Of a stretch of 64,000 nt of DNA, positions 1,262-34,892 are shown piece by piece. The DNA comes from a virus (Duplodnaviria; Heunggongvirae; Uroviricota; Caudoviricetes). Both the position numbers and the translations under genes were made by a program. The stretch lies in IMG/VR virus record IMGVR_UViG_3300021440_000016; one strand, 5' to 3'. The first letter of the stretch is position 1, and the number at the start of each line of letters is the position of its first letter. The notes beneath the pieces were generated by a model. The model did no database searches, was not told where the DNA came from, and worked only from the letters and a program-made list of their open reading frames with translations.

Positions 1262-1681
1262 ATGACCGAAGCAACCGTGATGGCTCTAATCGTCCTGTAT
1301 TCTCAGATGTTTGGATTTGATAGCCGAGTAGCCCTTGCTGTTGCTAAAGTTGAAAGTGGATATAAAGTCAACGCCGTATCTAAGGATACTAAAGACGTTG
1401 GAGTATTTCAACTCCGAACGACTTCCTACCCCGGATACACTCGCAAGGCTCTTATGAACCCTCGCATCAACATCATGCTCGGGATACTTCATCTTAAGCG
1501 TGTTAAGGATACGTGTGTACATAAGAAAAACTTAGACTATCTCACTTGTTTTAATATGGGAGAAGCTAAGGCTAAGCGAGTTAAGTACCCGCATTTATGG
1601 AAGTATGTCAAGAAAGTGAATGACGAGATGCAACGTAATAATTACCTTGCAATCGCCAGTATTAACGGCTATACTAATTAA
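1262..1681 (+). CDS. SLT-domain lytic transglycosylase (endolysin candidate)
   Basis: VESGYKVNAVSKDTKDVGVFQL matches the family-1 LT motif ES-x5-AxS...G-x-x-Q. Confidence 0.6.
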   Translation: MTEATVMALIVLYSQMFGFDSRVALAVAKVESGYKVNAVSKDTKDVGVFQLRTTSYPGYTRKALMNPRINIMLGILHLKRVKDTCVHKKNLDYLTCFNMGEAKAKRVKYPHLWKYVKKVNDEMQRNNYLAIASINGYTN

Positions 1682-2014: not shown

Positions 2015-2821
2015 ATGAAAGCTCTAATTTCTATTCTTTCTGTTTTTGTATTGTCTAGCTGCTCTGTGGTCGGACCGGGTGAGCGCGGCATTCGCTTTCA
2101 CTTTGGTAAAGCCTCAGACGAGGTTCAGTCTCCCGGTGCTTATGTGTATTTTCCGTTCTTTGCCGGAATGACTAAAGTCAACGTGCAGGTTCAGAAGTCA
2201 GAGGTTGAGGCTAGCGCTGCATCTAAGGATATGCAGGAGATTGTTACGCACGTTGCCGTTAACTGGTCTATTAGCCCTGATAAGGTTGTTACTATCTTTA
2301 AGAATGTGGGTAATGAGGACGATATCCTTAAACGCATCATCATTCCGGCTGTCAACGAAACCACGAAGCAAGCAGCCGCTCAACGGACGGCGGAAGACGC
2401 CCTCATTCATCGTCTTGATATGAAAAAGGATATTGACCTCGGACTTAAGGATCGACTTGCTGGTTACGGCATTACGTTGCATGATGTCTCTATTGTAAAC
2501 TTTAAGTTTTCCGATGAGTTTACTAAGGCGATTGAGCGTAAGCAGATCGCAGAACAGCGGGCCAAGGAGTCGGAGTATGAAGCTCAGCAGGCTATACAAA
2601 AGGCAAAAGCCGCTGCTAATTTAGCTAAAGGCGAAGCAGAAGCTACGCTGACTCGTGCCAAAGCCGAAGCGGAAGCGCAGAAGCTTCTTAAGATGAACCT
2701 TACAAAGGAAGTTCTTAACCTTGAATATCTCAAGAAATGGAACGGCGCACTTTCTACGGTGTTGACTGGTTCAGGTTCTGGTGTTATGCTTAACATGTCT
2801 GCCGCAAATAAAAAGGAGTAA
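2015..2821 (+). CDS. SPFH/band-7 (stomatin/prohibitin-like) lipoprotein
   Basis: N-terminal signal with lipobox LSSC; GERGIRFHFGKA SPFH core; C-terminal Ala/Glu-rich coiled coil. Confidence 0.65.
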   Translation: MKALISILSVFVLSSCSVVGPGERGIRFHFGKASDEVQSPGAYVYFPFFAGMTKVNVQVQKSEVEASAASKDMQEIVTHVAVNWSISPDKVVTIFKNVGNEDDILKRIIIPAVNETTKQAAAQRTAEDALIHRLDMKKDIDLGLKDRLAGYGITLHDVSIVNFKFSDEFTKAIERKQIAEQRAKESEYEAQQAIQKAKAAANLAKGEAEATLTRAKAEAEAQKLLKMNLTKEVLNLEYLKKWNGALSTVLTGSGSGVMLNMSAANKKE

Positions 2822-3234: not shown

Positions 3235-3555
3235 ATGAGTAAAACGTATTACAACCTCACCAAGGAGCTTGTTATCTGTATGGCTAAAAAGAAAAAGGCA
3301 GTTTATCCCGGAGTTGACATCTTCAGTACGTCTGCTTACGTTACTCTAGGTAAGGGCCTTGTAGGTACTATGGTCACTGCAGATAACAAGCTCTACCTCA
3401 TGTCTCTCATCAAACCTGTTAGAGTCGGAAGCTCTTGGAAAGATGAAAATCTCGGAGAAGAGACCGTCGTAATTGAATTTGACAATCTGAAGGGTTTGGA
3501 TATACTTATAGAGTCTCTTAAAGAAATTAAGAAGAGCATGGGTAAGAAGAGATGA
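3235..3555 (+). CDS. hypothetical protein
   Basis: MSK start; overlaps the next start (ATGA). Confidence 0.4.
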   Translation: MSKTYYNLTKELVICMAKKKKAVYPGVDIFSTSAYVTLGKGLVGTMVTADNKLYLMSLIKPVRVGSSWKDENLGEETVVIEFDNLKGLDILIESLKEIKKSMGKKR

Positions 3556-3818
3556 CCAAGCCTAATAAAAAGCAAGAAAAAATAAGCCCCACTAAAACTC
3601 TCTTTGAAACCGTCAGTACTGTGATCGCTACAATTGGGTTCACGTGCGGAGGAATGCTCGTAATTACCGCACTAGTCAACGGATATTACGCCCCAGAGCG
3701 CATTTTGAACATTAAGACCGCGATTGAGACTGATATCAAGCGCTTGGACGCTCAACACGAAGAGGACTTCCGATTGCTTAGAGATAAGATAGATTATCTT
3801 GAAAGGAAATGTCCATGA
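3552..3818 (+). CDS. small membrane protein
   Basis: One hydrophobic helix TVSTVIATIGFTCGGMLVITALV. Confidence 0.4.
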   Translation: MTKPNKKQEKISPTKTLFETVSTVIATIGFTCGGMLVITALVNGYYAPERILNIKTAIETDIKRLDAQHEEDFRLLRDKIDYLERKCP

Positions 3819-4024
3819 GTAAGTTCAAAGGAAAAACAGCTCTTCAAGCGGAGATTGCAAGCCTCGTTGGCTTTCTCGGATTTGCCGCCCTGTTCGCCGG
3901 GCTCGTGGTGGCCATTTCAGGCGCAATGGGTACAGCAATGCAGTTGGCTGTGTTGTTTGGCGTGCCCGTATTGGCTCTCGCCTTCGATTTGTGCCACTCC
4001 CCTTGTGGAGGTTCGGATGAGTAA
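3809..4024 (+). CDS. small two-helix membrane protein (GC-rich island)
   Basis: Two hydrophobic segments. Ends CGGSDE, overlapping the GGAGGTTCGGATGAGT junction. Confidence 0.4.
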   Translation: MSMSKFKGKTALQAEIASLVGFLGFAALFAGLVVAISGAMGTAMQLAVLFGVPVLALAFDLCHSPCGGSDE

Positions 4025-4301: not shown

Positions 4302-4448
4302 ATGAGTAAGCGGGACGTGGTGCTTTTGGCGTTTAGTGCATTCGAGTTTGTCGGTTGCGGCGGGGCGCTTGAACGCGGCGAATTGAGTGCCTCAATTGTG
4401 ATGGGCCTTGCTGGTATATCTTTTATGGCTTTGGCGGTGCTGAAATGA
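4302..4448 (+). CDS. small membrane protein (48 aa)
   Basis: GGATGAGTAAG start; the stop overlaps the next ATG (AAATGA). Confidence 0.3.
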   Translation: MSKRDVVLLAFSAFEFVGCGGALERGELSASIVMGLAGISFMALAVLK

Positions 4449-4648
4449 CCAAGCTGACTGAGGCGGCGGAGAAGTTCGTAAGGGAAATGCCGGACGAGAT
4501 TGCGGTTACGGACATTTATAAGGCTGGCTACCGCGCGGCGCTGGAGTCGGTCGCTACAATGATGGAGTCGGAACGCTATCTGGGACACGAGCTGTGGGCG
4601 ATTGAAATGGCAATGCGTATCCGCGCCCTTGGAGGTTCCGATGAGTGA
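4445..4648 (+). CDS. small protein, paralog of 9723..9968
   Basis: Begins MTKLTEAAEKFV and ends IRALGGSDE, exactly as the paralog does. Confidence 0.45.
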   Translation: MTKLTEAAEKFVREMPDEIAVTDIYKAGYRAALESVATMMESERYLGHELWAIEMAMRIRALGGSDE

Positions 4649-4817
4649 CCGTATCGAAGAAATCCGAGAGCGCGTTGAGGTAGCTCGCTTTGTCGAATAC
4701 GTCGTCCCCGGCGGGTTCCAAGAACCAAACCGCATGAAGTGCGTCGCTAGGGTAAGGTCATGTCTTGAGGACGCCAACACCGCCGAAAAGGTGGATGCTT
4801 GCTTAAAATTTGAGTAA
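4641..4817 (+). CDS. small protein
   Basis: Starts at the conserved junction GGAGGTTCCGATGAGT. Confidence 0.35.
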   Translation: MSDRIEEIRERVEVARFVEYVVPGGFQEPNRMKCVARVRSCLEDANTAEKVDACLKFE

Positions 4818-4853
4818 CACTCGGCCCTTTAAATTAAAAGTCAAAGGATTAAT

Positions 4854-5447
4854 ATGGAATTAGCGGCATTTCTTATTCTACTACTGTTATCTTTGTCTTT
4901 TCAATTAGCAGTAGAGAGGTTGATAAGATCAAAGAAGAGCGATATGTTTAAAACAGTACTAGCCGTTGTGGGTTCCATACTTTTTATTTCATTAATTCTT
5001 ACCACTATGTTTACTTTATCCGCAAAAGCGGACGATATAGCTATCCGATATTCTGTAAACGCTATCGGGTCTCCTTCTGATGTCAAGTATGTATCTATAG
5101 GACATACGTTTGATCATTATTTTCTAGAAGGAAAGCTGGAAGCAGGGCTATTGTTAGATCAACGGGTTAAAAAAAGCTCCACTGGAGTAGGCATAGCGAG
5201 CCTAGGTGTGGCACCTAAAGCCGGTAACTTCTTTATGTCCTTCCACCAAGGCATAGCCCTACTAAGTAACCCAGATGATATCTATCTAAGCGGTAATCTG
5301 CAGTTCACCGAGGATTTAGGTGTAGGATTTAGGGGTAGCAACGGCACCGCTATTGTGTTAGGCTATAGGCACATGTCAAATGCAGGGATAGTAAATCCCA
5401 ACCTAGGAAAAGACATGTTTTATTTAGAAACGAGACTTCCTCAATGA
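4854..5447 (+). CDS. PagL-like outer-membrane lipid A deacylase (start possibly at Met31)
   Basis: Signal-like N-terminus; C-terminal RHMSNAGI...YLETR resembles the PagL His-x-Ser...Glu triad. Confidence 0.45.
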   Translation: MELAAFLILLLLSLSFQLAVERLIRSKKSDMFKTVLAVVGSILFISLILTTMFTLSAKADDIAIRYSVNAIGSPSDVKYVSIGHTFDHYFLEGKLEAGLLLDQRVKKSSTGVGIASLGVAPKAGNFFMSFHQGIALLSNPDDIYLSGNLQFTEDLGVGFRGSNGTAIVLGYRHMSNAGIVNPNLGKDMFYLETRLPQ

Positions 5448-5704
5448 CGCCAGAAAAAGTTCAAGGGATTGTTTATTATCTTATTAGCCATCAAGGTAGA
5501 ATTAAAGAAAAGCTGCGTCCTTTTACTGAGCAAAGGAATAAGCTTCTTATAAACAATAGTTTGTTTAGTGAAGAAATTGTAGAGCAATATAAAGACTTGG
5601 TAACTAAGACGATTACAGACGAGCTTACAAAAGACCTAGGCGTTACTACAGAGGAAGCACGGATTGTATTAGAAGATCTTAATATGGAAGAGTATTTAGC
5701 TTGA
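5444..5704 (+). CDS. hypothetical protein
   Basis: ORF coupled to the upstream gene (ATGA overlap). Confidence 0.35.
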   Translation: MTPEKVQGIVYYLISHQGRIKEKLRPFTEQRNKLLINNSLFSEEIVEQYKDLVTKTITDELTKDLGVTTEEARIVLEDLNMEEYLA

Positions 5705-5719
5705 TAATACCGTAGCTCT

Positions 5720-6571
5720 GTGGTAGGTTATACTGTACGGAGGCTGACCAGAGCTATGGGAACGGTAATCTATTTTTCTTTTTTTTGTCTTTTAATTTCA
5801 GTGTACGTTGCAGTGCGCAAGCTTTTAGCTAGTGCTGATACTTTTTTGGGTTATGCTGCTGGCCTAATAGGAGCTGTGTGCCTTATTTATCTGGCGCTAG
5901 TTCTATTTTTTAACTCTTTCGCTAGAGCGGCCGATGATCGTTCCCACATTGCAGTAGTGGATACCGGAGCAAATATCCCAGCTGGATATGCTCGGTATAT
6001 CTGCAACGACAACTCTCATCTAGACCTTACAAATCAAGGTCTTAACGACGTTAACGGGCACGGCACCAACATCGCCGGGATTTTAGCCAAAAGTATGAAT
6101 CCCACTAGACAATGTCTTCAAATAATTAAATGGTATCATAATCAGGAACACTACGAGAAGATGAGGAAACTCTATCTTCTCGAATACCTGTCATCTAGGT
6201 CGCTTAAACACGCACTGAAGTATAAGGCCAAATTTGTAAATCTCAGTTACGGAGGCCCGGAACCCTACCCCGAAGAGTACAGAGAACTCATGAATTTGTT
6301 AAACACGGGGGCAATTGTAGCAATTGCTGCTGGAAATGAAGCAGTAAATCTAGACAATGCTTGTAATTACTATCCAGCGTGCTATGCTATTGCAAAGAAG
6401 AACTTCCATGTTGTAGGTAATAAGGGCTCAGGATCAACTAACTACGGTAACCGTGTTACGGACTGGGCAAACGGTAATAATGTAGAAGGATTTGGAGTGG
6501 TTCTAACCGGAACTAGTCAAGCAACTGCTGTGTGGCTATCCGAGGAGATTAAACGTGCATATCGTAGGTAA
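5720..6571 (+). CDS. membrane-anchored subtilisin-like serine protease (S8)
   Basis: Two N-terminal TM helices. Catalytic motifs VVDTGAN (Asp), NGHGTNIAGI (His) and GTSQATA (Ser) in canonical order. Confidence 0.55.
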   Translation: MVGYTVRRLTRAMGTVIYFSFFCLLISVYVAVRKLLASADTFLGYAAGLIGAVCLIYLALVLFFNSFARAADDRSHIAVVDTGANIPAGYARYICNDNSHLDLTNQGLNDVNGHGTNIAGILAKSMNPTRQCLQIIKWYHNQEHYEKMRKLYLLEYLSSRSLKHALKYKAKFVNLSYGGPEPYPEEYRELMNLLNTGAIVAIAAGNEAVNLDNACNYYPACYAIAKKNFHVVGNKGSGSTNYGNRVTDWANGNNVEGFGVVLTGTSQATAVWLSEEIKRAYRR

Positions 6572-6824
6572 AACGGAAGACAATAAAGAAATTGTAGCTG
6601 GAGTGTTCAAGTTTTACGACACTTACGGCGTGCCTCTATCTTTTCTCTTTGACGCCCTGCAAGAGAATAATAAAGTGATTGATATCGTAGATTTCTATCA
6701 GTTCGCTAGACAAGCCGGGTGGAAGAAACAACGAGTACTGTCACTGCTTTCGGAACACCTAGCCGATAGCTATGGAAAAGATTACAGAAACGCAGTACTG
6801 ATCAAGCTAGAGGCACTAGAATGA
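6555..6824 (+). CDS. hypothetical protein
   Basis: ORF overlapping the 3' end of the subtilase gene. Confidence 0.35.
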   Translation: MHIVGKTEDNKEIVAGVFKFYDTYGVPLSFLFDALQENNKVIDIVDFYQFARQAGWKKQRVLSLLSEHLADSYGKDYRNAVLIKLEALE

Positions 6825-6996
6825 GTATGTATTCGGGGTCAATTATTGATATACTTTCTCCAGTGGACGAGTTAGCCGGTTGCACGTGCGGGGCTTACTC
6901 CGTCAATCCCAAGCTAGAAAAAAGTAGACACGCATACCACTGCGAGTTGCTCAAATCGGAAAAGAAAAAAGACGAAGACTACGATACATATGGGTT

Positions 6997-7284
6997 TTGA
7001 GTATGAAGCTACGTAATTTTTTAAGCTGGGTTTGGGACAATGGAGGCTTTGCCATACTGGGGCTAATTCTAGCGTATGGGACTGTTAAGCTAGTTAAAGC
7101 AGACGGCTACGGAAGATCCCCCTACTACTACAGCTATCAAACAGGCTGCTACAACGCCTACTATAATGAGTGTAGCTTTCATGAAAACGAAAGACAAAAA
7201 GAAGCTTGCTTTAACAGAGGTTTAGACTCGTGCGAAGCGCAGGCAAAGCAGTTTGCGGACTGGATAGTTAATGCAAGTGAATAA
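6997..7284 (+). CDS. small Cys-rich membrane/secreted protein
   Basis: N-terminal hydrophobic helix and six Cys. Confidence 0.35.
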   Translation: MSMKLRNFLSWVWDNGGFAILGLILAYGTVKLVKADGYGRSPYYYSYQTGCYNAYYNECSFHENERQKEACFNRGLDSCEAQAKQFADWIVNASE

Positions 7285-7483
7285 GCGGTATAAGCATAAT
7301 AACGCTCTAGATACAGCTTTTCATACCAGTCATTTAGTAGATGAGACCAATTCTACATTGACATTTGAGGGTGGATGGTTTAACATCAGCTACACACCTC
7401 ACTTCTTCATAGAAGTAGATACTATTACTATTAATAAGTCAGACTTAGACAACTGGAGACAGCTAGATGAACCAATCGAATAA
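7271..7483 (+). CDS. hypothetical protein
   Basis: ORF only. Confidence 0.3.
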   Translation: MQVNKRYKHNNALDTAFHTSHLVDETNSTLTFEGGWFNISYTPHFFIEVDTITINKSDLDNWRQLDEPIE

Positions 7484-9323
7484 GCTACTATCTGATATTG
7501 TAGCTTTCCGTACTTACGCAAAGTTCCTTCCCCACGCAGGTCGTCGAGAGATTTTAGAAGAGTCTATCAATCGAGAAATGATGATGCATCTCGATAAGTT
7601 CCCTAAGTTGTCTAGGGATATTGTCAAGGCATTTCGTAAGGTTCATGATCTAGAAGTCATGCCCTCAATGCGAGGGTTGCAGTTCGCCGGGGATGCAATC
7701 CTCAAGAATAATGCCCGTCAATACAACTGCTCCTTCACTCCTATCGATCACGTAAAAACTTTCTCAGAAGTATTATTTCTCCTACTATCTGGAGTTGGAG
7801 TAGGATTTTCCGTTCAACGCAGACATATTAACAATCTCCCCAAAGTCGGTACTCCTAGGGAAGAGGGTCGATTTATTATCCACGACTCTATTTTAGGATG
7901 GGCACAAGCTGTAGATGCTCTAATGGATGCCTATTTCAATAACTCAATCAAACCAGTATTTGATTACTCAGCAATTCGTCCTAAAGGATCTTACCTTGTC
8001 ACTACTGGTGCGAAAGCTCCCGGTACTGAACCGTTGAAGTATATGTTACAAGCAGTAGAAGCTAGGCTTAAAGAGGCCCAAGGTCGCAAGCTTAGGGCTA
8101 TTGAAGTACACGATATTGTCTGTCTTATTTCAGATTGCGTCCTAGCTGGTGGAATTAGACGAGCTGCCCTTCTATCCCTATTTGATCGCGACGATACTGA
8201 AATGCTTACGGCTAAGTCTGGTGAGTGGTGGGTAAAGCACCCCTACCGTGCAAGGGCAAATAACAGCGCTGTACTCCCACGAGCAGAAGTAACCAAAGAT
8301 GAATTCATGGAAATCTTTCGAACCTGCAAAGACAGCGGCGCGGGGGAACCGGGCTTTAGCTGGACGAATAATCCAGACTGGGGATTTAACCCCTGCCATG
8401 AGATCGCTCTTAACCCCAATCAGTTTTGTAACCTCTCTACTATCAACCAAACTGGCATTCGTAACGAGAAGGACTTCCTAGATCGAGTATACTCAGCTAC
8501 CCTCCTAGGCACCCTACAAGCAGCGTACACGGACTTCCCATTCCTACGGTCTAAGTGGAAAGAAACCACCGAAAGAGAAGCGTTAATCGGTGCGTCAATG
8601 ACCGGCATTGCGGACGCTGCCGGAATCGTTACCCCCGCTATGCTAGAGAAGGGCGCCAAGCTAGCGCTGGAAGTTAATGAGAAGTACGCAAAGAAGATAG
8701 GCATTAACCCTGCCGCTCGTCTTACCGCTATTAAGCCAGAAGGTACTAGTAGTACTGTACTAGGCTCATCTAGCGGCATCCACGCTCGTCATGCAGAGTA
8801 CTACTTACGACGCATTCGTATGAATAAGAATGACGCCCTAGCTACCTACCTTTCTTCAGTAGTACCAGAACTAGTTGAAGATGACGTTACCGCTTCTAAT
8901 GGCATCGTAGTTACTATCCCACAGGAGTCACCGGCTGGAGCTATTATCCGTGACGCTGAAACAGCTATGTCATTGTTCAATCGCTCAATGATGTATAATA
9001 AACACTGGGTTGAACCCGGACATCGTAGCGGGGATAATAAACACAATGTATCCTGTACTATTTCAGTAAAGGATAACGAGTGGGAAGAACTAGCCGAGGC
9101 CATGTGGAACGCTAGGCATGAATACTCAGGGATGTCTCTACTACCCTTCGACGGCGGTAGCTACCGTCAGGCCCCCTTTGAAGCTTGTACAAAAGAGAAA
9201 TATGAAGAACTATCTAAGCTTGTGAAGGAAATCGATCTAAAGCAAGTTAAGGAAGAAGAAGACAATACTAATCGAATGGAAAGTATTGCTTGCTCTGGCG
9301 GACTTTGTGAGTTACCATTATAA
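7467..9323 (+). CDS. ribonucleotide reductase, class II (B12-dependent)-like
   Basis: Active-site-like NPCHEIALNPNQFCNLS (N-x-C-x-E) and C-terminal CSGGLC redox pair. Confidence 0.55.
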   Translation: MNQSNKLLSDIVAFRTYAKFLPHAGRREILEESINREMMMHLDKFPKLSRDIVKAFRKVHDLEVMPSMRGLQFAGDAILKNNARQYNCSFTPIDHVKTFSEVLFLLLSGVGVGFSVQRRHINNLPKVGTPREEGRFIIHDSILGWAQAVDALMDAYFNNSIKPVFDYSAIRPKGSYLVTTGAKAPGTEPLKYMLQAVEARLKEAQGRKLRAIEVHDIVCLISDCVLAGGIRRAALLSLFDRDDTEMLTAKSGEWWVKHPYRARANNSAVLPRAEVTKDEFMEIFRTCKDSGAGEPGFSWTNNPDWGFNPCHEIALNPNQFCNLSTINQTGIRNEKDFLDRVYSATLLGTLQAAYTDFPFLRSKWKETTEREALIGASMTGIADAAGIVTPAMLEKGAKLALEVNEKYAKKIGINPAARLTAIKPEGTSSTVLGSSSGIHARHAEYYLRRIRMNKNDALATYLSSVVPELVEDDVTASNGIVVTIPQESPAGAIIRDAETAMSLFNRSMMYNKHWVEPGHRSGDNKHNVSCTISVKDNEWEELAEAMWNARHEYSGMSLLPFDGGSYRQAPFEACTKEKYEELSKLVKEIDLKQVKEEEDNTNRMESIACSGGLCELPL

Positions 9324-9534
9324 TAATATGAGGAATGCTTTGAGAAATCTAATTCTAATTGTTGGTTTACTGGCTCTCAGTGGATGTGGTAAGCGCGTGT
9401 GTGTCACTGAAACAATTTTCTCCGTTGGTGGTTGTAATAAAGATGGTCGCTGTGGAGTTTTAACCGAGAGTGGGGCTAGAACAGCTCACCTACCAGTTCC
9501 AGGAACAAAATATGAGTTCTGTCATTACGAATAA
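9286..9534 (+). CDS. small lipoprotein
   Basis: Signal LILIVGLLALSGC with lipobox; Cys-rich mature part. Confidence 0.45.
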   Translation: MLALADFVSYHYNNMRNALRNLILIVGLLALSGCGKRVCVTETIFSVGGCNKDGRCGVLTESGARTAHLPVPGTKYEFCHYE

Positions 9535-9722: not shown

Positions 9723-9968
9723 ATGAGTAAGCTGACTGAGGCGGCGGAGAAGTACGTTCTGACCGAAATTGACCCAAGTGATTACGTCAATTCAGCACCG
9801 GATGAGCTGGCTAAGAGACTGTTTGAAGCCGGAGCCCGCTGGATGCTGGAGGAGGCGGCTAATTTAGCGCACGCTCGGTCAAGGAGAAGCATTGCCACAG
9901 AAGGAGCTATTGTTTGCGCGGAGGAGCTTGAAGCGGAAATCCGCGCCCTTGGAGGTTCCGATGAGTAA
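9723..9968 (+). CDS. small protein, paralog of 4445..4648
   Basis: MSKLTEAAEKYV...EIRALGGSDE; the 3' 25 nt are identical to the paralog. Confidence 0.45.
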   Translation: MSKLTEAAEKYVLTEIDPSDYVNSAPDELAKRLFEAGARWMLEEAANLAHARSRRSIATEGAIVCAEELEAEIRALGGSDE

Positions 9969-26078: not shown

Positions 26079-27155
26079 ATGAAACCGACCCATATTCATG
26101 AAATTCTGAATCTTACCCGTCAGGCCCGCAGTCTTGGACATAAATTCAATCCACTTTTTGTCGGACCTCCCGGCATTGGTAAGTCTGAAATTATTCAGCA
26201 GTGGTGCAATAAACATAATATTCCCTTTATCGATCTTCGGGCAGCCTATCTTGAAGCCCCAGACGTTATCGGCTTTCCTCAGATTAAGGAGGTAGATGGT
26301 CGCGCCCGCACCATTCACGCTCTCCCCGAATTCTGGCCCGCTGACCCTAATTGGGAAGGCGTCATTCTGCTTGAAGAACCCAATCGAGGCACTACCTCTG
26401 TCATGAACACGTTTATGCAGATGCTCACTGATCTGCAAGTCCACCTCTACAAGCTCCCTAAGCGGGCTATGATTGTTGGAGCAATCAATCCTGAAAACGA
26501 AGAGTACGATGTTAACACCATGGATGCGGCTCTTAAGAATCGCTTTGAGATGTTCCATGTTGACTACGACGCTGAAAGCTTCATCAAGTTTATGCGGGAC
26601 GATGAATGGGACGAACGAGTTGTTGACTTCGTCCGAGGTAATTTCTGGACTTACGTTAAGCCGGAAGATGTAGCGAATAATCCCGGAGCTAAGTATATTT
26701 CTCCTCGTTCTCTCAGTAAGCTTAACTCAGCTCTTAAAGCTGGCGTCACTGAAATGGACATGGCTGTGCAGATGATGGTTTTTGAGTCCGTACTCGGAAA
26801 GAACTACGCCATCCAATTTTTTAATTTCATCTCCAAGGAGCGTCCGGTCTTTGTACGCGATCTCCTTGAGAATAAGGATGAAGCCATCAGCCGTCTTGCG
26901 CAGTTCGCTAATCCTGACAACTACAAGAACGGTCACATCTCTATGTTTATCGAGGATCTTAAGAGTTCACATGAACAGGTAAGCAACGCCGTGCTCGCGG
27001 AAGTTCTTGTAACTCTTCCTGCCGACCAATCTATCAACCTTATTCGGGAGCTTGAGTACCTCAAGAAAGTCAAAACCGGAAGCCTTGCCAAGGAGCTTGC
27101 AAAGGATTACCCCGAAGTGAAGAAATACTTTGCAAAGCATCTCAAGAAGAGCTAA
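26079..27155 (+). CDS. AAA_5 (MoxR/CbbQ-like) ATPase
   Basis: Walker A GPPGIGKSE; Walker B ILLEEPNR; compact AAA_5-like length. Confidence 0.55.
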   Translation: MKPTHIHEILNLTRQARSLGHKFNPLFVGPPGIGKSEIIQQWCNKHNIPFIDLRAAYLEAPDVIGFPQIKEVDGRARTIHALPEFWPADPNWEGVILLEEPNRGTTSVMNTFMQMLTDLQVHLYKLPKRAMIVGAINPENEEYDVNTMDAALKNRFEMFHVDYDAESFIKFMRDDEWDERVVDFVRGNFWTYVKPEDVANNPGAKYISPRSLSKLNSALKAGVTEMDMAVQMMVFESVLGKNYAIQFFNFISKERPVFVRDLLENKDEAISRLAQFANPDNYKNGHISMFIEDLKSSHEQVSNAVLAEVLVTLPADQSINLIRELEYLKKVKTGSLAKELAKDYPEVKKYFAKHLKKS

Positions 27156-27268
27156 TATAGAACAGTAGTCTATTATGAAGGATGTCTGGACAAGTGTTGA
27201 GTTAGAAGCCGCGTGTAACGCTCTTATTTGTCTGGACATCTTTTCTAAAGAGAAAGGCAACGAATTAT

Positions 27269-28588
27269 ATGACTGGCTCTTATGTGCTAAAAGCAATCGA
27301 CACTCCCTCTTCACCCGCTTCTTCGCAAACATCACCTACGACAAGCTTATCCGCGAGTGAAAAGAAGAGTAATCTAGAGCGGGCTCTTTATGATTTCGCT
27401 ACGGCCAATGCTTTTTTTGCCGCATTTTTGCAGGAAATCAATATTTCACATGACGAGCAGCTACCAACTGCTGCCATCGGCTACGACAAAAAGCAGAATG
27501 AGTTTCGGGTCATGGTCAATCCAAACTACTTTGGTAGTCTCACTGGGGAGCAACGCGTAGCCGTTTTGTTCCACGAGGTTCTTCACTTCACGCACGGCCA
27601 TCTTATTCGTATGGGTCTTACTGACGTAGACCTCGATAAGATGACGGCTGAAGAAAAGGTTCAGTTTAAGAACGAAACCATGATTAAGAATCTAGCCGCT
27701 GACCTTGCCATCAATCAGTACATCAAGAATCTACCGGACGGATGTATTACGTTAGATACGTTTAAAGATGAACATGGAAACCGCTTCCCGGCTTACCAGA
27801 CCTATGAGGTTTACTATGACCTCATTAATAAAAATAAAGATAATCAGCATAATAAGGACAAGTTCCAAGAAGCGGAAACCCTTGTCCTAGATGACCACTT
27901 GTGGGAGCAGCTCACGGACGAAGAAAAGGCCAACATGCTTAAGAAGGCCAAGGAAGTCACCGAGCGTACTATTGAGAAGACTTCTCGCGAATATGGCAGT
28001 GGCAAGGATCACGTAAAGGATCTTATGCAGATGCTAGAAACCGAGATGAATCGTATTAATTATAAACAGCTTCTCAAGATGGCAATCCGTCGTACTGTAA
28101 CTAAGCATAACAGAGACAGCACGTGGACTAAACCAAACCGCCGCTACGATGTCTATGCTCCCGGTACCCGAGAAGGTCAAGTACCGATGCTGAACATCTA
28201 CATTGATACATCAGGTAGTATTTCTCACACCGAACTAAACCGTTTTCTTAAGTTTATTCAGGGGTGCCTTAAGGCTGGATCAAATACGTGCAATATTGGT
28301 CTTTGGTCAGACTCCCTGTATCATGTAGAAAAGTTTACTAAGAACACTAAGGCCGAGAATCTACCGATTGAGTCGGGAGGTACTTGCGTAGACACCACTC
28401 TAGAACACATTAACAAGAATAATCCAGACTTGGCTATCATTCTTACCGACGGGTATTACCCGGAATCTAAAATCCCGTTTAAGTATAAGAATATTATTTG
28501 GGTTATTTCTGACTCCTCGGGCGTAAGCTCTCATCCACACAAAAGTATAGGTAAGACTATCACTCTTAAGGGAGTTATTGGTGGCTGA
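27269..28588 (+). CDS. VWA-like domain protein with N-terminal putative HExxH metallopeptidase-like domain
   Basis: VLFHEVLHFTHGH (HExxH) and IYIDTSGSIS MIDAS-like DxSGS motif. This is the usual partner of AAA_5 ATPases. Confidence 0.5.
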   Translation: MTGSYVLKAIDTPSSPASSQTSPTTSLSASEKKSNLERALYDFATANAFFAAFLQEINISHDEQLPTAAIGYDKKQNEFRVMVNPNYFGSLTGEQRVAVLFHEVLHFTHGHLIRMGLTDVDLDKMTAEEKVQFKNETMIKNLAADLAINQYIKNLPDGCITLDTFKDEHGNRFPAYQTYEVYYDLINKNKDNQHNKDKFQEAETLVLDDHLWEQLTDEEKANMLKKAKEVTERTIEKTSREYGSGKDHVKDLMQMLETEMNRINYKQLLKMAIRRTVTKHNRDSTWTKPNRRYDVYAPGTREGQVPMLNIYIDTSGSISHTELNRFLKFIQGCLKAGSNTCNIGLWSDSLYHVEKFTKNTKAENLPIESGGTCVDTTLEHINKNNPDLAIILTDGYYPESKIPFKYKNIIWVISDSSGVSSHPHKSIGKTITLKGVIGG

Positions 28589-28802
28589 TAATATAGAAAC
28601 GTTATGGGTGGTAAGCTCGTGCGGACTATATAAGTTCTGTATTATGCAGAGCTTTATTAAAAAATACGGCGATATTGTGAGGACGGAAGATGTTTATCGA
28701 TTAATGACTCACTATAGACTAGATATGTACTTGCATAATGACAGCGGTTCTGCTATTTTATATCTAGAGCCAGGAAAAGAGAACATAAAGGCTTTTTTTT
28801 AA
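28578..28802 (+). CDS. hypothetical small protein
   Basis: ORF only. Confidence 0.3.
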   Translation: MVADNIETLWVVSSCGLYKFCIMQSFIKKYGDIVRTEDVYRLMTHYRLDMYLHNDSGSAILYLEPGKENIKAFF

Positions 28803-28900
28803 ATGGTAAACAAGTGACTGAGGAAGAAATTCCAAAGTTGAAGCATAACAAGGACTTCAAAAAAGAAACTGAAGACCTTTTCGGTATTTAAGGAGATAGT

Positions 28901-29257
28901 ATGGATATGGAAAAGAAGCTTATGGACACTGCTCTTGACAGCACGGTTACCTTTCAGGTAAAAGGTAAGCTCAGTAAGGATGAGAAGCTGTTCAATTACG
29001 AGGTAACTGTGAAGTCTGGATTTTTTCGCCAAGAAAAAAAGCCTGATTTGACTAAGAATACCATTCAAGAACTCATTACCGATTTTAATATTCTTCCGTT
29101 CCTTCATAATCCGGTAGGTCCTAGTATCACCAACACGGATACTGGCGAACGCGGGTACTTCATCAATGGTCATCCCCTTACCCCAGAAGAGGGCGCCAAG
29201 CTCCAGCATAACGTAGACTTTAAAACTGAGGCTGAGGAAGTCTTTGGCATTAAATAA
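28901..29257 (+). CDS. hypothetical protein
   Basis: ORF with GGAGA RBS. Confidence 0.4.
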   Translation: MDMEKKLMDTALDSTVTFQVKGKLSKDEKLFNYEVTVKSGFFRQEKKPDLTKNTIQELITDFNILPFLHNPVGPSITNTDTGERGYFINGHPLTPEEGAKLQHNVDFKTEAEEVFGIK

Positions 29258-29419
29258 GTTCTTGATGACCACAGATGAGGCTTACCTAGCCTTCGATATT
29301 CTCAAAAAATTGCAAGTAATTACAAACATCAGAACTGGCACAATAGAACAGCTTCATTTTCTTTGGGCTGTTTGTGACAATTCTGATTATTGGTATGGAC
29401 TTCTTAGGAAGGAATTATA

Positions 29420-30583
29420 ATGTTTTTGGAAGAATCACTAACTTATGCTGACGTACTAATCAAACCTGCTTTTTCTATGATTAGGTCCCGTAAGGAAGTT
29501 ACGCTAGACACTACCTTCTTGGGTGTTAATATTGGTCTACCTCTTATCTCGTCTAATATGGACACTGTGACTTCTCCTCAGATGGCCGCAGCAATGTCTA
29601 AGGCTGGAGGGCTTGCTGCGCTTCATAGGTTTCAAACTATCGAGCAGAATGTTGATCAATTTTACGCATCAGTAGACCTTTCCGCTAATTCTCTTCACTC
29701 ATCAAAGTACACTAAGAAACCTATTGGTAGTTTTGGAATCGGCGATATGGAGTACGAACGAGCGTTGGCCCTATATGACGCAGGGACTGAGATTCTTCTA
29801 CTGGACGTAGCGCATGGTGCAGCTATTCACGTAGTTGAGCAATATGACCGGGTACGGTCCAGAGTTGGGAATAATTGTGCTATTATCGTGGGTAATTTTG
29901 ATAACTATGATTCTGTTAATGCTTTTATTGGTCATCTGAAGTCCAGCCGTAAACCAGACGCTCTGAAAATCGGCGTAGGTAACGGAGCCGCGTGTATCAC
30001 TCGCGTAGTCACTGGTTGTGGAGGTGGCATGATTTCCGCCCTGCTGGACTGCTCTCTATCTGGAATTCCTCTGATTGCCGATGGTGGTACCAAGAATAGC
30101 GGGGATATCGCAAAGGCTCTAGCGGCTGGCGCTAGTATGGTAATGGCTGGAAGTATGCTTGCTGGAACGGAGGAATCTCCCGGTGAGCTGGTTTATTTTA
30201 ATTCTCTTAATCAGCAAGTAACAAAGGATGAGCTTTTCCGTAAAATCTATTCTGAGAAATCTGATTCTTTCGAATATGTTATTCATAGTCCAGAAGAGTC
30301 TTTTTACAGCATTAAAAAGAAATACCGTGGCTCAGCTTCTCAAGAGTCATACGAAGTGCAAGGAAAGGTAGACAACCATCGCACCCCTGAAGGTGAGGCA
30401 ATGCTTCTACCGTATAAGGGTCCGGTGGCCCCTATTCTAGAGTCTAATGCCGCTGGCCTTAAGTCTACCCTTGCATACGTAGGGGCAAAGAGCTTGACAG
30501 AATTTAGAGACAATGTTAAGCTAGTAAAAGTCAGCACCTCAACGTTAGCAGAAAATGGCGCCCACGGAAAGCATAGGACATAA
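29420..30583 (+). CDS. IMP dehydrogenase / GMP reductase family enzyme
   Basis: LISSNMDTVTSPQMAAAMSKAGGLAALHRF and catalytic-loop-like KIGVGNGAACITRVVTGCGGG. No CBS insert; GMP-reductase-like length. Confidence 0.5.
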   Translation: MFLEESLTYADVLIKPAFSMIRSRKEVTLDTTFLGVNIGLPLISSNMDTVTSPQMAAAMSKAGGLAALHRFQTIEQNVDQFYASVDLSANSLHSSKYTKKPIGSFGIGDMEYERALALYDAGTEILLLDVAHGAAIHVVEQYDRVRSRVGNNCAIIVGNFDNYDSVNAFIGHLKSSRKPDALKIGVGNGAACITRVVTGCGGGMISALLDCSLSGIPLIADGGTKNSGDIAKALAAGASMVMAGSMLAGTEESPGELVYFNSLNQQVTKDELFRKIYSEKSDSFEYVIHSPEESFYSIKKKYRGSASQESYEVQGKVDNHRTPEGEAMLLPYKGPVAPILESNAAGLKSTLAYVGAKSLTEFRDNVKLVKVSTSTLAENGAHGKHRT

Positions 30584-30586
30584 AAA

Positions 30587-31564
30587 ATGGGATTTTTTAA
30601 ACTTCGCTCTGTAATCTCCCTCAACGATATTCAAGCCGGAGCTGCTCTCGATATACAGGAGTCAGATTTTAGCCTACAGACCTCCGATGATAAGTTCCTC
30701 CAATTTGAATATGTTGAGGAAGAGCGAAAGCTTTCTCCTTACCCAGTAAAGCCCGGAGTATTCACTATAACTAAAACCATGACTGGGATGGATCTAATTC
30801 CCACTACCTTTACGCAGGATAAGATCCTAAAAGATCTTCTATCCACTAAAAACGTAACCGAGCGTATTGATAAGTTTTTTGACCGGCTACATGTTTATTA
30901 CGAAGAGGGAATCGAAATCCCCAAACGAGGAGCACTCCTCTACGGTCCAGCTGGTACGGGTAAGTCCTCTAGCATCTCCACTATTGTTGAAAAGTACGCA
31001 GGTGATAATAAGACTATTATTATTAGCTGGAGCACCGATACGTTTGAAGCGTCAGATGTTAAGCGTTTTTTTAAGTCGTTTGACTACCAAGGCGTAGAAC
31101 GCATGATCCTAATTGCGGAGGATATTGGTGGAATAGAAAATGACCAAGCTACTATTAGGTCTGACTCTTCTCTTCTTTCTTTGCTCGATAATAAGGAAAA
31201 AACTTTTAAAGTTCCTATTTACATCCTCGCCACCACTAACTTTCCTCAAAATCTAATGGGCAACTTAACTAATCGCCCAGATCGATTCGACGATAAAATT
31301 GAAGTAGGATACCCTCCAGCAATAGCGAGAGTAGAACTTCTAAAGTTTTATCTTAAAGACTCGGCTACGGAAGAAGCTATTAAGCTCATTGAATCTAAAA
31401 AGTGTGATGAATTCACTCCCGCACATATTAGAGAAATTAGAATTCGCTCTAAAATTCACGATAAAGCGGTGGAAGAAGTCATTAAGGAAATTTCACAAGA
31501 AATCGAAATGTATAAAAAAGCCTTCTCCAAACAGCGTTCGATGAGCATGGGGTTTGTGGATTGA
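30587..31564 (+). CDS. AAA+ ATPase
   Basis: Walker A GPAGTGKSS, Walker B ILIAEDIGG, sensor/Arg-finger region PDRFDDKIEVGYP. Confidence 0.55.
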   Translation: MGFFKLRSVISLNDIQAGAALDIQESDFSLQTSDDKFLQFEYVEEERKLSPYPVKPGVFTITKTMTGMDLIPTTFTQDKILKDLLSTKNVTERIDKFFDRLHVYYEEGIEIPKRGALLYGPAGTGKSSSISTIVEKYAGDNKTIIISWSTDTFEASDVKRFFKSFDYQGVERMILIAEDIGGIENDQATIRSDSSLLSLLDNKEKTFKVPIYILATTNFPQNLMGNLTNRPDRFDDKIEVGYPPAIARVELLKFYLKDSATEEAIKLIESKKCDEFTPAHIREIRIRSKIHDKAVEEVIKEISQEIEMYKKAFSKQRSMSMGFVD

Positions 31565-31860
31565 GCAAGAACTGCACCGATAAACGCAGAGTTAATCATA
31601 ATAGATATGTTGGCAGACGAACATATCGTACTGGTAGAGATAAAGATACCAACTCATGGGAGTTTATGATTAATTCGCTGGAATTTTTGGTGGACAATAA
31701 ACGCCATCTTATTCACCGCAATACTTCCGCTAAGCGAGAAGCTCGTATAGAAGAACAATTTAAGAAAATCTTGGATTCTGTAGAGATTCAAAGTTCTTCT
31801 GTAGCTGAGGCGTTTGGAGAGCTATTAGAAGAACACGATATAGATAGCTCACATGAATAA
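31561..31860 (+). CDS. hypothetical basic protein (non-ATG start)
   Basis: ORF only. Confidence 0.3.
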   Translation: MSKNCTDKRRVNHNRYVGRRTYRTGRDKDTNSWEFMINSLEFLVDNKRHLIHRNTSAKREARIEEQFKKILDSVEIQSSSVAEAFGELLEEHDIDSSHE

Positions 31861-32089
31861 TATAACCGATATTAAAAAATTTAAAGCTTCTAAGAAAGCC
31901 AAGGTCGTTTATGCCGAGCTTCAGCAGGTAATAAAGATCTTCGACCTAACCACGACAGCGCTTAGATACTTTAGTAAATATAGTATTGTTATGGAAGTTA
32001 TCAGCGTTCTTCAATCTAATCGTACTTTATTGGAAATTCATTGCAAAAAGTATGAAAAAATGATAAAGTCGGAGAAAGACCATGAGTAA
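31853..32089 (+). CDS. hypothetical protein
   Basis: ORF only. Confidence 0.3.
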   Translation: MNNITDIKKFKASKKAKVVYAELQQVIKIFDLTTTALRYFSKYSIVMEVISVLQSNRTLLEIHCKKYEKMIKSEKDHE

Positions 32090-32402
32090 AAGAATAGACT
32101 ATAAAGCGTTAGCTAAGAATATTCCACATAACGTTCAGGTCGCTAATAAGCGGGCCTACGAAGTTCTTTACTCGGACACCATCAAGTTTGATAATAACAT
32201 CATGGGCGAAACTCGCTTTGACCCCCCTCAAATCGTTCTTCAAACGGGACAGTCTAGTAGAGAAATGGTTTTAACGTACTGGCATGAATTCCTCCATGCC
32301 ATATCGGAGGAGCACGAAGTCCCTCTTACTGAATCCGAAGTGCGGAGGCTGGAGCGCTCCTTTACTTACTTCTATAAGTTTTTTGATACCCTCAAAGGAT
32401 AA
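32082..32402 (+). CDS. small protein with HExxH motif
   Basis: WHEFLHAISEEHE contains HEFLH; possible mini zinc-metallopeptidase. Confidence 0.3.
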   Translation: MSKRIDYKALAKNIPHNVQVANKRAYEVLYSDTIKFDNNIMGETRFDPPQIVLQTGQSSREMVLTYWHEFLHAISEEHEVPLTESEVRRLERSFTYFYKFFDTLKG

Positions 32403-32405
32403 TCC

Positions 32406-33191
32406 ATGAGCAAAAAGAATAGGCCAAAGGTTCTTCTACTAGACATCGAAATAAGCCCGTTACTCGCCTCAGTGTGGGCTTTGTTTGATCAAAACGTAGG
32501 CCTTAATCAAATTCAAAGAGATACTTTCATACTCTCATTCAGTGCCAAGTGGCTAGATAGCGATAAGGTCATTTATATGGACCAGAGTCGCGCAAAGGAC
32601 ATCGAGGACGACTCAACCCTACTAAAGGCTGTGTGGAAGTTACTAGACGAGGCTGACATCGTGATTGGTCAGAACTCAAAACGTTTTGATATTAAGAGAT
32701 TAAATGCTCGATTCATAATTAATGGCATGCAGCCACCTTCTAGTTTCAAGCAAGTAGACACCCTAGAATTAGCTAAACGAAATTTTGCTTTTACCTCCAA
32801 TAAACTAGAGTATCTCAGCAGTAAGCTGTGCACTAAACACAAGAAGCTTACTAAGCGGAAATACGCCGGATTTGAACTTTGGAAGGAATGTCTAAAGGGC
32901 AATAAGGCCGCTTGGAAAGAAATGCGAGAGTATAATACTTTAGACGTATTATCTCTACAAGAGCTATATGAGAAACTAGCACCATGGGGATCACCAGTTA
33001 ACTTTGAACTTTACTCTGATGAAGTTTCTACCAAGTGTAACTGTGGCTCTGAAGAGTTTACGAAGAACGGATTTAAGTATACATCTTCTGGAAAGTTCCA
33101 ACGATTCAAATGTATTAGCTGTGGAGCTGAGCACCGCGATAAGAAGAACTTATTCACGAGAGAAAAACGAGCTTCTTTAGGTGTGAAGTAA
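32406..33191 (+). CDS. DnaQ-like (DEDD) 3'-5' exonuclease with C-terminal zinc ribbon (tentative)
   Basis: LLLDIEISPL (exo I-like D-x-E), FDIKRLNARF, YNTLDVLSLQELY (exo III-like), CNCG...CISCG. Confidence 0.35.
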   Translation: MSKKNRPKVLLLDIEISPLLASVWALFDQNVGLNQIQRDTFILSFSAKWLDSDKVIYMDQSRAKDIEDDSTLLKAVWKLLDEADIVIGQNSKRFDIKRLNARFIINGMQPPSSFKQVDTLELAKRNFAFTSNKLEYLSSKLCTKHKKLTKRKYAGFELWKECLKGNKAAWKEMREYNTLDVLSLQELYEKLAPWGSPVNFELYSDEVSTKCNCGSEEFTKNGFKYTSSGKFQRFKCISCGAEHRDKKNLFTREKRASLGVK

Positions 33192-33415
33192 TGGATAAAT
33201 ATAATACACGCTTGAGTAATCTAAACCCAACAAACTACATAAACAATCATGTTCTTACGCTTGAGTATAACTATAGGAAGGCATTCTTTGATTTAAATAT
33301 TATTACAAATGAACCTTGGTTGCTCGTACTTCAATATGAAACAGATTATGCTGTATCAGGAAAGGTGATTGATTATGTTGAAAAATGCTTCAGGGATCAA
33401 ATACGACGCAGGTAA
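33191..33415 (+). CDS. small protein, FxDLxII-motif family
   Basis: Contains AFFDLNIITNEPWLLV. Confidence 0.3.
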   Translation: MDKYNTRLSNLNPTNYINNHVLTLEYNYRKAFFDLNIITNEPWLLVLQYETDYAVSGKVIDYVEKCFRDQIRRR

Positions 33416-33683
33416 GCCCAAGCTCTCATACCTTCCCTATGACGCTTTAGTGGAAGTCGCTAAGGTAATGGAATTCGGCGCTCAGAAATACGATAAGCAC
33501 AATTATAAGAAGGGTATGGAATATACCAGACTTATAGATGCGGCCTTCAGACACCTACACCAATTTAACGACGGTCAAGATTTAGACGAAGAATCCCATC
33601 TAAATCACATCTCACATTGTATCTCTAATCTTCTTATGCTATTGTGGATGGTAAAACATAAGCCCGAGATGGATAATCGATAA
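33369..33683 (+). CDS. MazG-like dATP/dGTP pyrophosphohydrolase N-terminal-domain protein (tentative)
   Basis: GKPKLSYLPYDALVEVAKVMEFGAQKYDKHNY resembles phage nucleotide-pyrophosphohydrolase domains. Confidence 0.35.
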   Translation: MIMLKNASGIKYDAGKPKLSYLPYDALVEVAKVMEFGAQKYDKHNYKKGMEYTRLIDAAFRHLHQFNDGQDLDEESHLNHISHCISNLLMLLWMVKHKPEMDNR

Positions 33684-34129: not shown

Positions 34130-34377
34130 TGGGTAGAATCAGTGATCCTAATCCGCCGCTACACGTAAGGAAACTATTACTTATTTATCCTAATTTGCTA
34201 TTAGATTATAAAATTAACCATTTACTTTTTTCTTTAACAGTGTTAGAATCGGATCAGTGGGCTTTGCTGCCTGATTTAGCTCCTCTACCGGAGGATAGGC
34301 GAGCACTAGATCACTGGGAGAATGAGATAAAGCGCGTCATTGAGGAATATGCAAAAAAACTCTCGAAAGAAACGTAA
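34129..34377 (+). CDS. hypothetical protein
   Basis: ORF only. Confidence 0.3.
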   Translation: MGRISDPNPPLHVRKLLLIYPNLLLDYKINHLLFSLTVLESDQWALLPDLAPLPEDRRALDHWENEIKRVIEEYAKKLSKET

Positions 34378-34864: not shown

Positions 34865-34892
34865 GCACAGTAGTAAATACTAGCAGGTGTAG

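Follow-up and report, generated by a model that had tools for sequence, protein, structure and literature searches.

Phages are known to alter the O-antigen of their hosts, and some prophages carry the lipid A deacylase LpxR. The other closely comparable enzyme is PagL, a bacterial lipid A 3-O-deacylase that relies on an HxS catalytic pair (His126/Ser128 in Pseudomonas aeruginosa, His163/Ser165 in Salmonella). The P. aeruginosa protein (PDB 2ERV) is an eight-stranded barrel of ~140 to 150 residues that carries HxSNAG...PNxG on its last strands, with Glu140 as what we take to be the acid of its triad. Salmonella PagL, a member of the same enzyme family, is chromosomal, is regulated by PhoPQ, and belongs to the intracellular life of a pathogen; its His and Ser are both essential (PMC4958258). 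LpxR, a 3'-O-deacylase (PF09982) of the outer membrane, is phage-borne: it sits next to the antiterminator gene Q in temperate lambdoid prophages as a conversion gene, with no protease partner noted in the part of the report that we draw on (bioRxiv 10.64898/2026.05.13.724894). LpxR belongs to an unrelated family, however: its barrel has 12 strands and depends on Ca2+, and what it removes is the 3'-acyloxyacyl group (PMC6863877). Here we describe a locus in IMG/VR virus record IMGVR_UViG_3300021440_000016 (64,000 nucleotides of Caudoviricetes DNA; this whole stretch is called the window below) in which genes for a predicted PagL-family protein, an 86-amino-acid (aa) protein, and a predicted minimal subtilase of peptidase family S8 stand together. 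These genes appear to form a conserved accessory module, and the two enzymes are predicted to be exported and to act on the envelope.

The window is 64 kb of an 85.5-kb source contig (ENA ERZ27252002 k141_716791), and ~19 kb of flanking sequence was analysed with it. It is genuine phage DNA, with genes for a family A DNA polymerase, a primase-helicase, a class II-like ribonucleotide reductase (RNR), and a major head protein; terminase and portal genes lie on the same contig just past the right end of the window. Many independent contigs show this arrangement too, which makes it unlikely that phage and bacterial DNA have been joined into a chimera here. The phage would be tailed and uncultivated, with a genome of ~85 kb and a host that has an outer membrane. 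It is probably virulent: a genome with its own polymerase, primase-helicase, RNR, ThyX, and S-adenosylmethionine (SAM) lyases has an architecture typical of virulent phages. No relative was detected among 50,697 GenBank phage records, either by megablast of positions 4500 to 7300 or by tblastn of PagL, S8, and a structural protein.

The PagL-family gene (4854 to 5447, plus strand) encodes a precursor of 197 aa and is also called as a gene on the source contig; a ribosome-binding site (RBS), AAAGGA, stands 5 nucleotides (nt) ahead of its ATG at 4854. The product scores 42.3 bits (E 1.1e-10) with Pfam profile PF09411, whose gathering score is 23. The match runs over residues 106 to 191, equivalent to profile positions 41 to 131 of 136, and Pfam covers only the C-terminal two thirds of the protein. 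The same profile is carried by all seven close homologues and by 48 of the 49 proteins retrieved in a profile search. When all PDB sequences were searched with phmmer, the sole match was P. aeruginosa PagL 2ERV (E 8e-4), in an alignment that places yrHmSNAGivnPNlGkD of the window over aiHySNAGlkqPNdGiE. An AlphaFold2 model of the mature domain (138 aa; 5031 to 5444, plus strand) has exactly eight predicted beta-strands, with a predicted local distance difference test score (pLDDT) of 96.6 and a predicted template modelling score of 0.88. In a Foldseek comparison of this model with the PDB, chains A and B of 2ERV came out on top (TM-scores 0.78 and 0.74), followed by NspA, OmpA, and OmpX. A previous interpretation made from the letters of the window alone, which we call the sequence-only reading, had proposed a PagL-family deacylase on the strength of the motif RHMSNAGI. 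The motif is present as quoted (residues 172 to 179), the family assignment is upheld by the score above the curated cut-off and by 2ERV as best structural match, and the predicted fold is the eight-stranded barrel that PagL requires.

The catalytic motif His173-Met-Ser175-Asn176 (HxSN; 5370 to 5381, plus strand) aligns with His126, Ser128, and Asn129 of 2ERV. Across an alignment of 47 sequences with a mean column identity of 24%, the H, S, N, A, and G of the motif and the N and G that follow are invariant. The acid had been placed at Glu192, in the pattern RHMSNAGI-x15-E. That assignment does not stand: the spacing to Glu192 is 12 residues, position 192 varies across the family, and the residue aligned with Glu140 of 2ERV is Asp187 (5412 to 5414, plus strand; motif NLGKD), which is predicted to complete the triad. 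All 17 closer sequences keep Asp187, and Asp is the usual residue at this position family-wide, chromosomal PagLs included; in place of Glu it is a conservative change. The gene is thus predicted, from alignment and model together, to encode a PagL-family eight-stranded barrel with an intact His173-Ser175-Asp187 triad plus Asn176, and lipid A 3-O-deacylase is its predicted activity. The resemblance to 2ERV extends to barrel size and to the position of the motifs on the last strands, whereas the identity is only ~19%, the acid is Asp rather than Glu, a 59-aa two-helix leader replaces the plain signal peptide, the C-terminus has no terminal aromatic residue, and the protein is encoded by a phage. 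Compared with Salmonella PagL, the window enzyme would be made from a phage genome during infection, and its consequence for the cell is something we infer.

The second enzyme is a subtilase (Peptidase_S8) precursor of 271 aa encoded at 5756 to 6571 on the plus strand. Its product matches Pfam PF00082 at 34.7 bits (gathering score 21.8, E 1.5e-8) and the PHROG family phrog_3677, annotated 'protease', at E 2e-10. The sequence-only reading had drawn the open reading frame (ORF) from 5720. The frame is indeed open from a GTG at that position, which would give 283 aa, but translation more probably starts at the ATG at 5756, which has GGAGG 12 nt upstream and is the start chosen by gene callers on the source contig. 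The subtilase identity proposed earlier is well founded, given the profile match above the cut-off and the subtilisin fold of the model, and the three quoted motifs VVDTGAN, NGHGTNIAGI, and GTSQATA are all present in Asp-His-Ser order. Our searches found 37 homologues of 199 to 326 aa. In 32 of them that were aligned, with a mean column identity of 27%, Asp69 (VVDTG; 5960 to 5962), His102 (HGTNIAG; 6059 to 6061), the oxyanion residue Asn194 (AAGNE; 6335 to 6337), and Ser254 (GTSQA; 6515 to 6517), all on the plus strand, are invariant. The catalytic domain (5930 to 6568, plus strand) is 213 aa long and has a predicted subtilisin fold. The model has a pLDDT of 95.4; its comparison with the PDB gave subtilisin BL (1ST3) at E 6.7e-11 and 191 hits at E<=1e-3, those listed being all subtilases.

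The nearest solved proteins by sequence are intracellular subtilisins, which likewise have no classical I9 propeptide. The S8 protein itself has no propeptide, because the first core strand (HIAVVDT) begins five residues past the predicted signal-peptidase cleavage site; a segment of propeptide size is absent from every member of the family aligned. This rules out the classical secreted subtilisin subgroup, which has an I9 propeptide. A type VII secretion mycosin was also rejected (NCBIfam TIGR03921, 33.6 bits against a cut-off of 278.75). Two pairs of cysteines characterise the family. Cys83 and Cys120 are near-invariant across the 32 homologues, and Cys203 and Cys209 (CNYYPAC) are either both present or both absent, and therefore form a disulfide signature. 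The co-variation within pairs indicates that the enzyme is periplasmic. With subtilisins 6F9M, 7XR8, 7Y6M, and 1ST3 it shares the alpha/beta fold, the Asp-His-Ser order, the oxyanion Asn, and the SxGG substrate-binding segment; it differs from them in a catalytic domain ~55 to 60 residues shorter, an identity of ~20%, an export leader, the two conserved Cys pairs, and membership of a small family. As judged from alignment and model, the window S8 is a minimal subtilase without propeptide and with two conserved Cys pairs. Altogether, we have a high degree of confidence in the biochemical identities of both enzymes.

How would the two enzymes reach the envelope? Each is predicted to have an unusual leader of two helices. 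The PagL leader (4854 to 5030, plus strand) consists by hydropathy and motifs of a hydrophobic helix, a basic loop (RLIRSKKSDMFK), and a second hydrophobic helix that ends in a signal-peptidase I site, SAKA/DD, with cleavage predicted after Ala59 to release a leader of 59 aa. The S8 leader (5756 to 5929, plus strand) likewise has two hydrophobic helices, placed by AlphaFold2 at residues 2 to 25 and 30 to 55, and a predicted site FARA/ADD, with cleavage after Ala58. The N-terminal extension of PagL is in all likelihood translated, since relatives keep its MFNW start without an internal Met and a good RBS precedes position 4854; homologues P0002 to P0007 share the layout of the leader in this long form. 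Where these leaders stand, more distant PagLs and most S8 relatives carry plain signal peptides. In the 32 aligned S8 proteins the column at the end of the leader holds AxA-type sites or lipoboxes, the latter being clear in P0033 (LAGC) and looser in P0028 (LGSC). The S8 family would be extracytoplasmic, because its members mostly carry ordinary signal peptides with a small-x-small site, or lipoboxes. We infer from the predicted sites that both enzymes are released from their leaders.

This view of the leaders modifies what had been said of them. The N-terminus of PagL had been called signal-like, which fits its hydrophobic leader and AxA site, although two helices are more than a plain signal peptide. 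The two N-terminal helices reported for S8 are there, but they are not specific to S8, as PagL has two as well. The description of the subtilase as membrane-anchored is probably wrong: a signal-peptidase I site closes its second helix, and plain signal peptides or lipoboxes are the rule among its relatives, so that a released periplasmic enzyme is more likely. Two observations on the leaders may be added here. After cleavage, a two-helix hairpin peptide of ~58 aa would stay in the inner membrane. The regions coding for the first helices of PagL and S8 share a weak similarity of 73% over 33 nt.

Between the two enzyme genes, directly upstream of S8, lies the gene for the acidic, helical 86-aa protein (5444 to 5704, plus strand). 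It has no signal peptide and no significant match in Pfam, PHROG, NCBIfam, or PADLOC. It is conserved, at 46 to 52% identity, in the three closer of the lineages that have the pair, and its orthologues in L001 and L008 take the same position. The arrangement as a whole is kept across at least four phage lineages, counting the window. In L001 to L004 the order is SLT ... PagL, a 75-aa protein, an 84-aa protein, S8 ... RNR, with 65% identity to the window PagL and 58% to its S8. In L008 the order is SLT ... PagL (160 aa, with a plain signal peptide), an 88-aa protein, S8 (PagL 33%, S8 46%). In L013, from IMG/VR, S8 follows PagL after ~700 bp (PagL 33%, S8 31%); the pair stands beside an M15-type peptidase, recognised by sequence motifs, and small membrane proteins, and farther upstream there is an ORF with a weak resemblance to Trypsin_2 (E 7e-5).

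The two genes also occur apart. In L006 and L007 there is no PagL within 7 kb of S8; genes of 140 to 146 aa upstream of S8 in these two were considered as divergent PagLs and ruled out by Pfam and by their sequences. All six S8 contexts examined are phage-like contigs. PagL without S8 occurs in many other phage-like contigs, with a polymerase, DnaB, SLT, Trypsin_2, peptide deformylase, terminase, or thymidylate synthase as neighbours. It stands beside peptide deformylase in L010 (6001 to 8557), L015, and L017 (5370 to 6312); the first two of these also have a Trypsin_2 serine protease, again a secreted serine protease, of another fold, paired with PagL.

Relatives are few: an exhaustive search of 1.84 billion representatives with phmmer retrieved only 267 at E<=1e-3, of which 59 reached E<=1e-10. 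In the GenBank phages, tblastn with the window PagL, a second phage-type PagL (P0048), and S8 gave no match, and no phage-carried PagL-type deacylase was found in the literature searched. BFVD contains many phage outer-membrane barrels, none annotated as PagL, with weak E-values. A profile scan of 185,579 GTDB genomes gave no match, none as prophage. A degenerate DNA pattern for HxSNAG..PNxG[KR]D picked out 49 chromosomal loci in GTDB, mostly of Proteobacteria, and these chromosomal PagLs resemble the phage protein over the C-terminal 40 to 70 residues only. The exception (L045) is a gene from a metagenome-assembled genome of Bdellovibrionota, 34% identical over 142 aa, in an ordinary context of lipopolysaccharide (LPS) and sugar metabolism and not in a prophage. 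The similarity may be a weak hint at the host. A lipid A deacylase on a phage had been thought unusual; that holds for isolated phages, but PagL is recurrent in uncultivated ones and LpxR is known in E. coli prophages.

The module is part of a long co-directional block of early to replication genes, with early anti-restriction genes before it and the RNR and replication genes after it. Along the source contig the order is two SAM lyases, a 186-aa ORF with a tyrosine-recombinase domain, a response-regulator domain, and an SLT lytic transglycosylase, then a lipoprotein of the SPFH family, small membrane proteins, PagL, the 86-aa gene, S8, a Cys-rich protein, RNR, a lipoprotein, and recombination and replication genes. 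The sequence-only reading had called the enzymes a moron cluster, a moron being an accessory gene unit transcribed on its own. This label is not borne out, and an autonomous moron was rejected: no promoter and terminator bracket PagL-S8, terminators being depleted in the region; the GC content of 0.39 to 0.43 lies within the range of the phage, with no compositional break; and the genes are embedded in the co-directional block. The module is syntenic in related phages.

What, then, might the module do? We propose that PagL and S8 remodel the outer membrane during infection, and put the probability of this at roughly 0.6. Both enzymes would be made with the early and middle genes and carried across the inner membrane by Sec, where signal peptidase would cut the two-helix leader at its AxA site. 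The host beta-barrel assembly machinery (BAM) would insert the barrel into the outer membrane, and there, in the outer leaflet, it would hydrolyse the ester bond of the 3-hydroxyacyl chain at lipid A position 3, while the disulfide-stabilised protease would cleave envelope proteins in the periplasm. Together they would leave each lipid A with fewer acyl chains and the outer membrane more loosely packed and more prone to vesiculate. Active PagL by itself raises vesicle output in Salmonella about four-fold, which the H/S mutant does not, and deacylated lipid A accumulates in the vesicles (PMC4958258).

As for the benefit to the phage, the one we judge most likely, as a tentative choice, is that the outer membrane is primed for the release of progeny. 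In support, several lineages encode a peptidoglycan hydrolase no more than a few kb from PagL, and serine proteases (Trypsin_2) lie near PagL in L010, L015, and L013. Phage proteins that attack the outermost lipid layer for the escape of progeny are exemplified by the 'disruptin' gp28 of phiKT and by LysB, the latter being, like PagL, a serine esterase that acts on an outer-membrane lipid linkage. These proteins are unrelated to the window enzymes in sequence and fold, however, and are found in lysis cassettes, whereas the window genes stand in no evident cassette and a lysis role for them is hypothetical. Several findings weigh against the proposed role. Expression of PagL in Salmonella caused no envelope stress and no general destabilisation (PMC4958258). 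The window barrel ends in ...RLPQ and thus has no terminal aromatic residue of the kind typical of BAM substrates, most homologues ending in F, L, or W. PagL-S8 lies outside any recognisable holin-endolysin cassette, and an M15_3 peptidase gene by the terminase looks more conventional. In many phage lineages PagL sits beside unrelated genes such as those for terminase, peptide deformylase, and thymidylate synthase.

A close alternative to egress priming, though a doubtful one taken alone, is superinfection exclusion or receptor masking. Early deacylation and proteolysis would alter or shed the cell surface, so that competitors, and the phage's own progeny, would adsorb to or inject poorly into infected cells and debris; the effect could come from altered packing of lipid A and LPS, from receptor-laden vesicles, or from degraded entry proteins. 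The location in an early-to-middle block, downstream of two anti-restriction SAM lyase genes, fits this well, as the exclusion functions of T4 (imm, sp) and T5 (llp) sit among early-to-middle genes. A neighbourhood rich in lipoproteins and small membrane proteins fits as well, as do vesicle shedding driven by PagL activity and the separation of PagL from lysis genes in many lineages. The 3-O-acyl chain, however, lies buried in the membrane, and no phage is known to use it as a receptor determinant; vesicles that act as decoys would catch the phage's own progeny too. Nor do the proteins of the cluster match any known defence or exclusion family in PADLOC-DB: S8 gave a generic subtilase match of 20 bits, the SPFH lipoprotein matched PDC-M27A at 13.8 bits (E 0.0064), and PagL, the 86-aa protein, and the other neighbours gave nothing. 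A known anti-phage defence system was rejected as an identity for the cluster, no protein of which matches one meaningfully there.

The priming of egress could also take a stronger form, in which the two enzymes are a dedicated means of disrupting the outer membrane at lysis and replace or assist spanins. The transglycosylase would degrade peptidoglycan, S8 would cut the tethers between outer membrane and peptidoglycan, and PagL would thin lipid A until the membrane ruptures. We consider this form unlikely, and what chance we give it is contained in that given to priming. Were it to hold, the pair would be a Gram-negative counterpart of mycobacteriophage LysB, and bursting could proceed without spanins or with less dependence on them; the two-helix leaders might then delay export or leave behind a membrane-active hairpin peptide. 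About 15% of phages of Gram-negative hosts have no spanins and need other means (bioRxiv 10.1101/515445), and LysB sets the precedent of a lysis esterase whose targets are lipid linkages of the outer membrane (PMC5707550). In the window, the SLT gene (1262 to 1681, plus strand; 139 aa; Pfam SLT, 41.5 bits) lies a few kb from PagL, and small transmembrane proteins stand between the two, the SLT and transmembrane genes being 0.4 to 3.6 kb upstream of PagL. SLT is within a few kb of PagL in L001 to L004, L008, L009, L011, and L012 as well, and with L013 these are the lineages that have an SLT or M15 hydrolase nearby.

Against such a lysis device, the canonical holin-endolysin-spanin order is not present around PagL-S8, the genes are co-directional with early and replication genes, and in many phages that carry PagL no hydrolase is found close to it. 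The conventional endolysin candidate is a Peptidase_M15_3 gene (35.2 bits against 23.2) that adjoins the terminase and portal genes past the right end of the window, and therefore the SLT near PagL need not be the lysis enzyme. The phage may even have spanins: between SLT and PagL, positions 3552 to 3818 encode a possible i-spanin-like type II membrane protein of 88 aa with a coiled-coil-like C-terminal tail. This protein overlaps one of 71 aa with two transmembrane segments (together 3552 to 4024), and neither gave a family match; the two might be a spanin-like and a holin-like protein.

A less probable reading than these keeps the protease within the module. S8 would mature or activate PagL or another phage protein, or the 86-aa protein would be its inhibitor or chaperone. 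The order PagL, 86-aa gene, S8 is tight and conserved, and a subtilase without a folding propeptide could conceivably need a partner in trans. Yet many phages have PagL but no S8, and L006 and L007 have S8 with no PagL near it; the 86-aa protein, having no signal peptide, would not meet a periplasmic enzyme. We know of no bacterial PagL that needs proteolytic activation apart from removal of its signal peptide. Finally, lysogenic conversion, in which a prophage PagL would lower the acylation of lipid A and so reduce recognition by Toll-like receptor 4 or raise tolerance of antimicrobial peptides, can find some support in LpxR adjoining Q in E. coli prophages (in the part of the report that we draw on; bioRxiv 10.64898/2026.05.13.724894), in a Phage_integrase-domain ORF on the contig and in relatives, and in a full-length recombinase near PagL in L010, but it is very improbable given an ORF of merely 186 aa, fragment-sized, with no full integrase seen on the contig, no promoter-terminator bracket or compositional signature, no prophage match in the 185,579 GTDB genomes, where chromosomal PagLs with C-terminal similarity were the only ones found, and the virulent-type architecture (polymerase, primase-helicase, RNR, ThyX, SAM lyases). 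The earlier framing in terms of the lysogen and its immune visibility loses its footing for the same reasons.

Both enzymes belong to known families, and LpxR is an earlier example of a lipid A deacylase carried by phages. What is new is the carrier of PagL, a phage that is probably virulent, together with the predicted two-helix leaders, the recurrence of PagL in uncultivated phages, and what looks like an ancient coupling of PagL with a propeptide-less mini-subtilase, presumably disulfide-bonded, and an 86-aa partner. It is tempting to regard chemical editing of lipid A as a regular, overlooked part of phage infection of outer-membrane bacteria, as is suggested by the tight linkage of PagL to a protease and its recurrence in further uncultivated lineages. 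The module bears on how the outer membrane is breached without spanins, on vesicles driven by infection, and on the shielding of infected cells from other phages. The 213-aa protease domain and the 138-aa deacylase may also serve as small tools, for example in engineering low-endotoxin strains or vesicles.

Membrane and secreted proteins are concentrated between 1.2 and 9.5 kb of the window. They include the SPFH/Band-7 lipoprotein (2015 to 2821, plus strand; lipobox LSSC; Pfam Band_7, 115 bits; phrog_200, lipoprotein). A Cys-rich secreted protein and a lipoprotein had been pointed out nearby, and both are present and called as genes. The first is a small Cys-rich protein with an N-terminal signal or anchor (7003 to 7284, plus strand) that has 46% identity over 52 aa in L001 to L004. 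The second is a small lipoprotein of 75 aa with lipobox LSGC (9307 to 9534, plus strand), whose sole family match is one of its signal region to the LptM model, below the cut-off. The tandem SAM lyase genes, upstream of the window, are at 993 to 1382 and 1878 to 2267 of L073; downstream of them in the early region come the Phage_integrase-domain ORF of 186 aa and the response-regulator receiver domain, which stands alone.

An exact direct repeat of 28 nt (ATCCGCGCCCTTGGAGGTTCCGATGAGT) occurs at 4619 to 4646 and 9939 to 9966, and also at 3995 to 4022. It is the 3' end of the paralogous genes 4445 to 4648 and 9723 to 9968 (41% aa identity, both ending in ...IRALGGSDE), and the RBS and ATG of the ORF that follows lie within it as well. 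The first two copies named, both in GC-rich islands of 0.52 to 0.565, flank a 5-kb block that contains PagL, S8, RNR, and the lipoprotein, and the repeat may be a recombination or cassette boundary.

Elsewhere in the window, a MoxR-type AAA ATPase and a DUF2201 VWA/metallopeptidase protein form a pair among the genes at 26079 to 28588, 29420 to 30583, 33369 to 34129, and 35826 to 36626; this pair also adjoins PagL in L017 and is found close to S8 in L007. The 26079 to 36626 region further encodes an IMPDH/GMP-reductase-like enzyme (255 bits), a MazZ-like dGTP_diPhyd_N protein, a dUTPase, and a ClpP-family protease. A 2-aminoadenine (Z) genome, suspected from the MazZ-like gene, was dropped, as no PurZ was found. 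Just past the right end of the window (L074, 7295 to 8491), a structural-region protein of 398 aa has an Mtd_N domain by precomputed Pfam annotation, a domain known from the receptor-binding protein of Bordetella phage BPP-1 that is diversified by a diversity-generating retroelement. Within the structural block itself, positions 62576 to 63487 on the minus strand encode a protein of 303 aa with an ART-PolyVal ADP-ribosyltransferase domain (36.1 bits against 31.2), which could be an injected effector.

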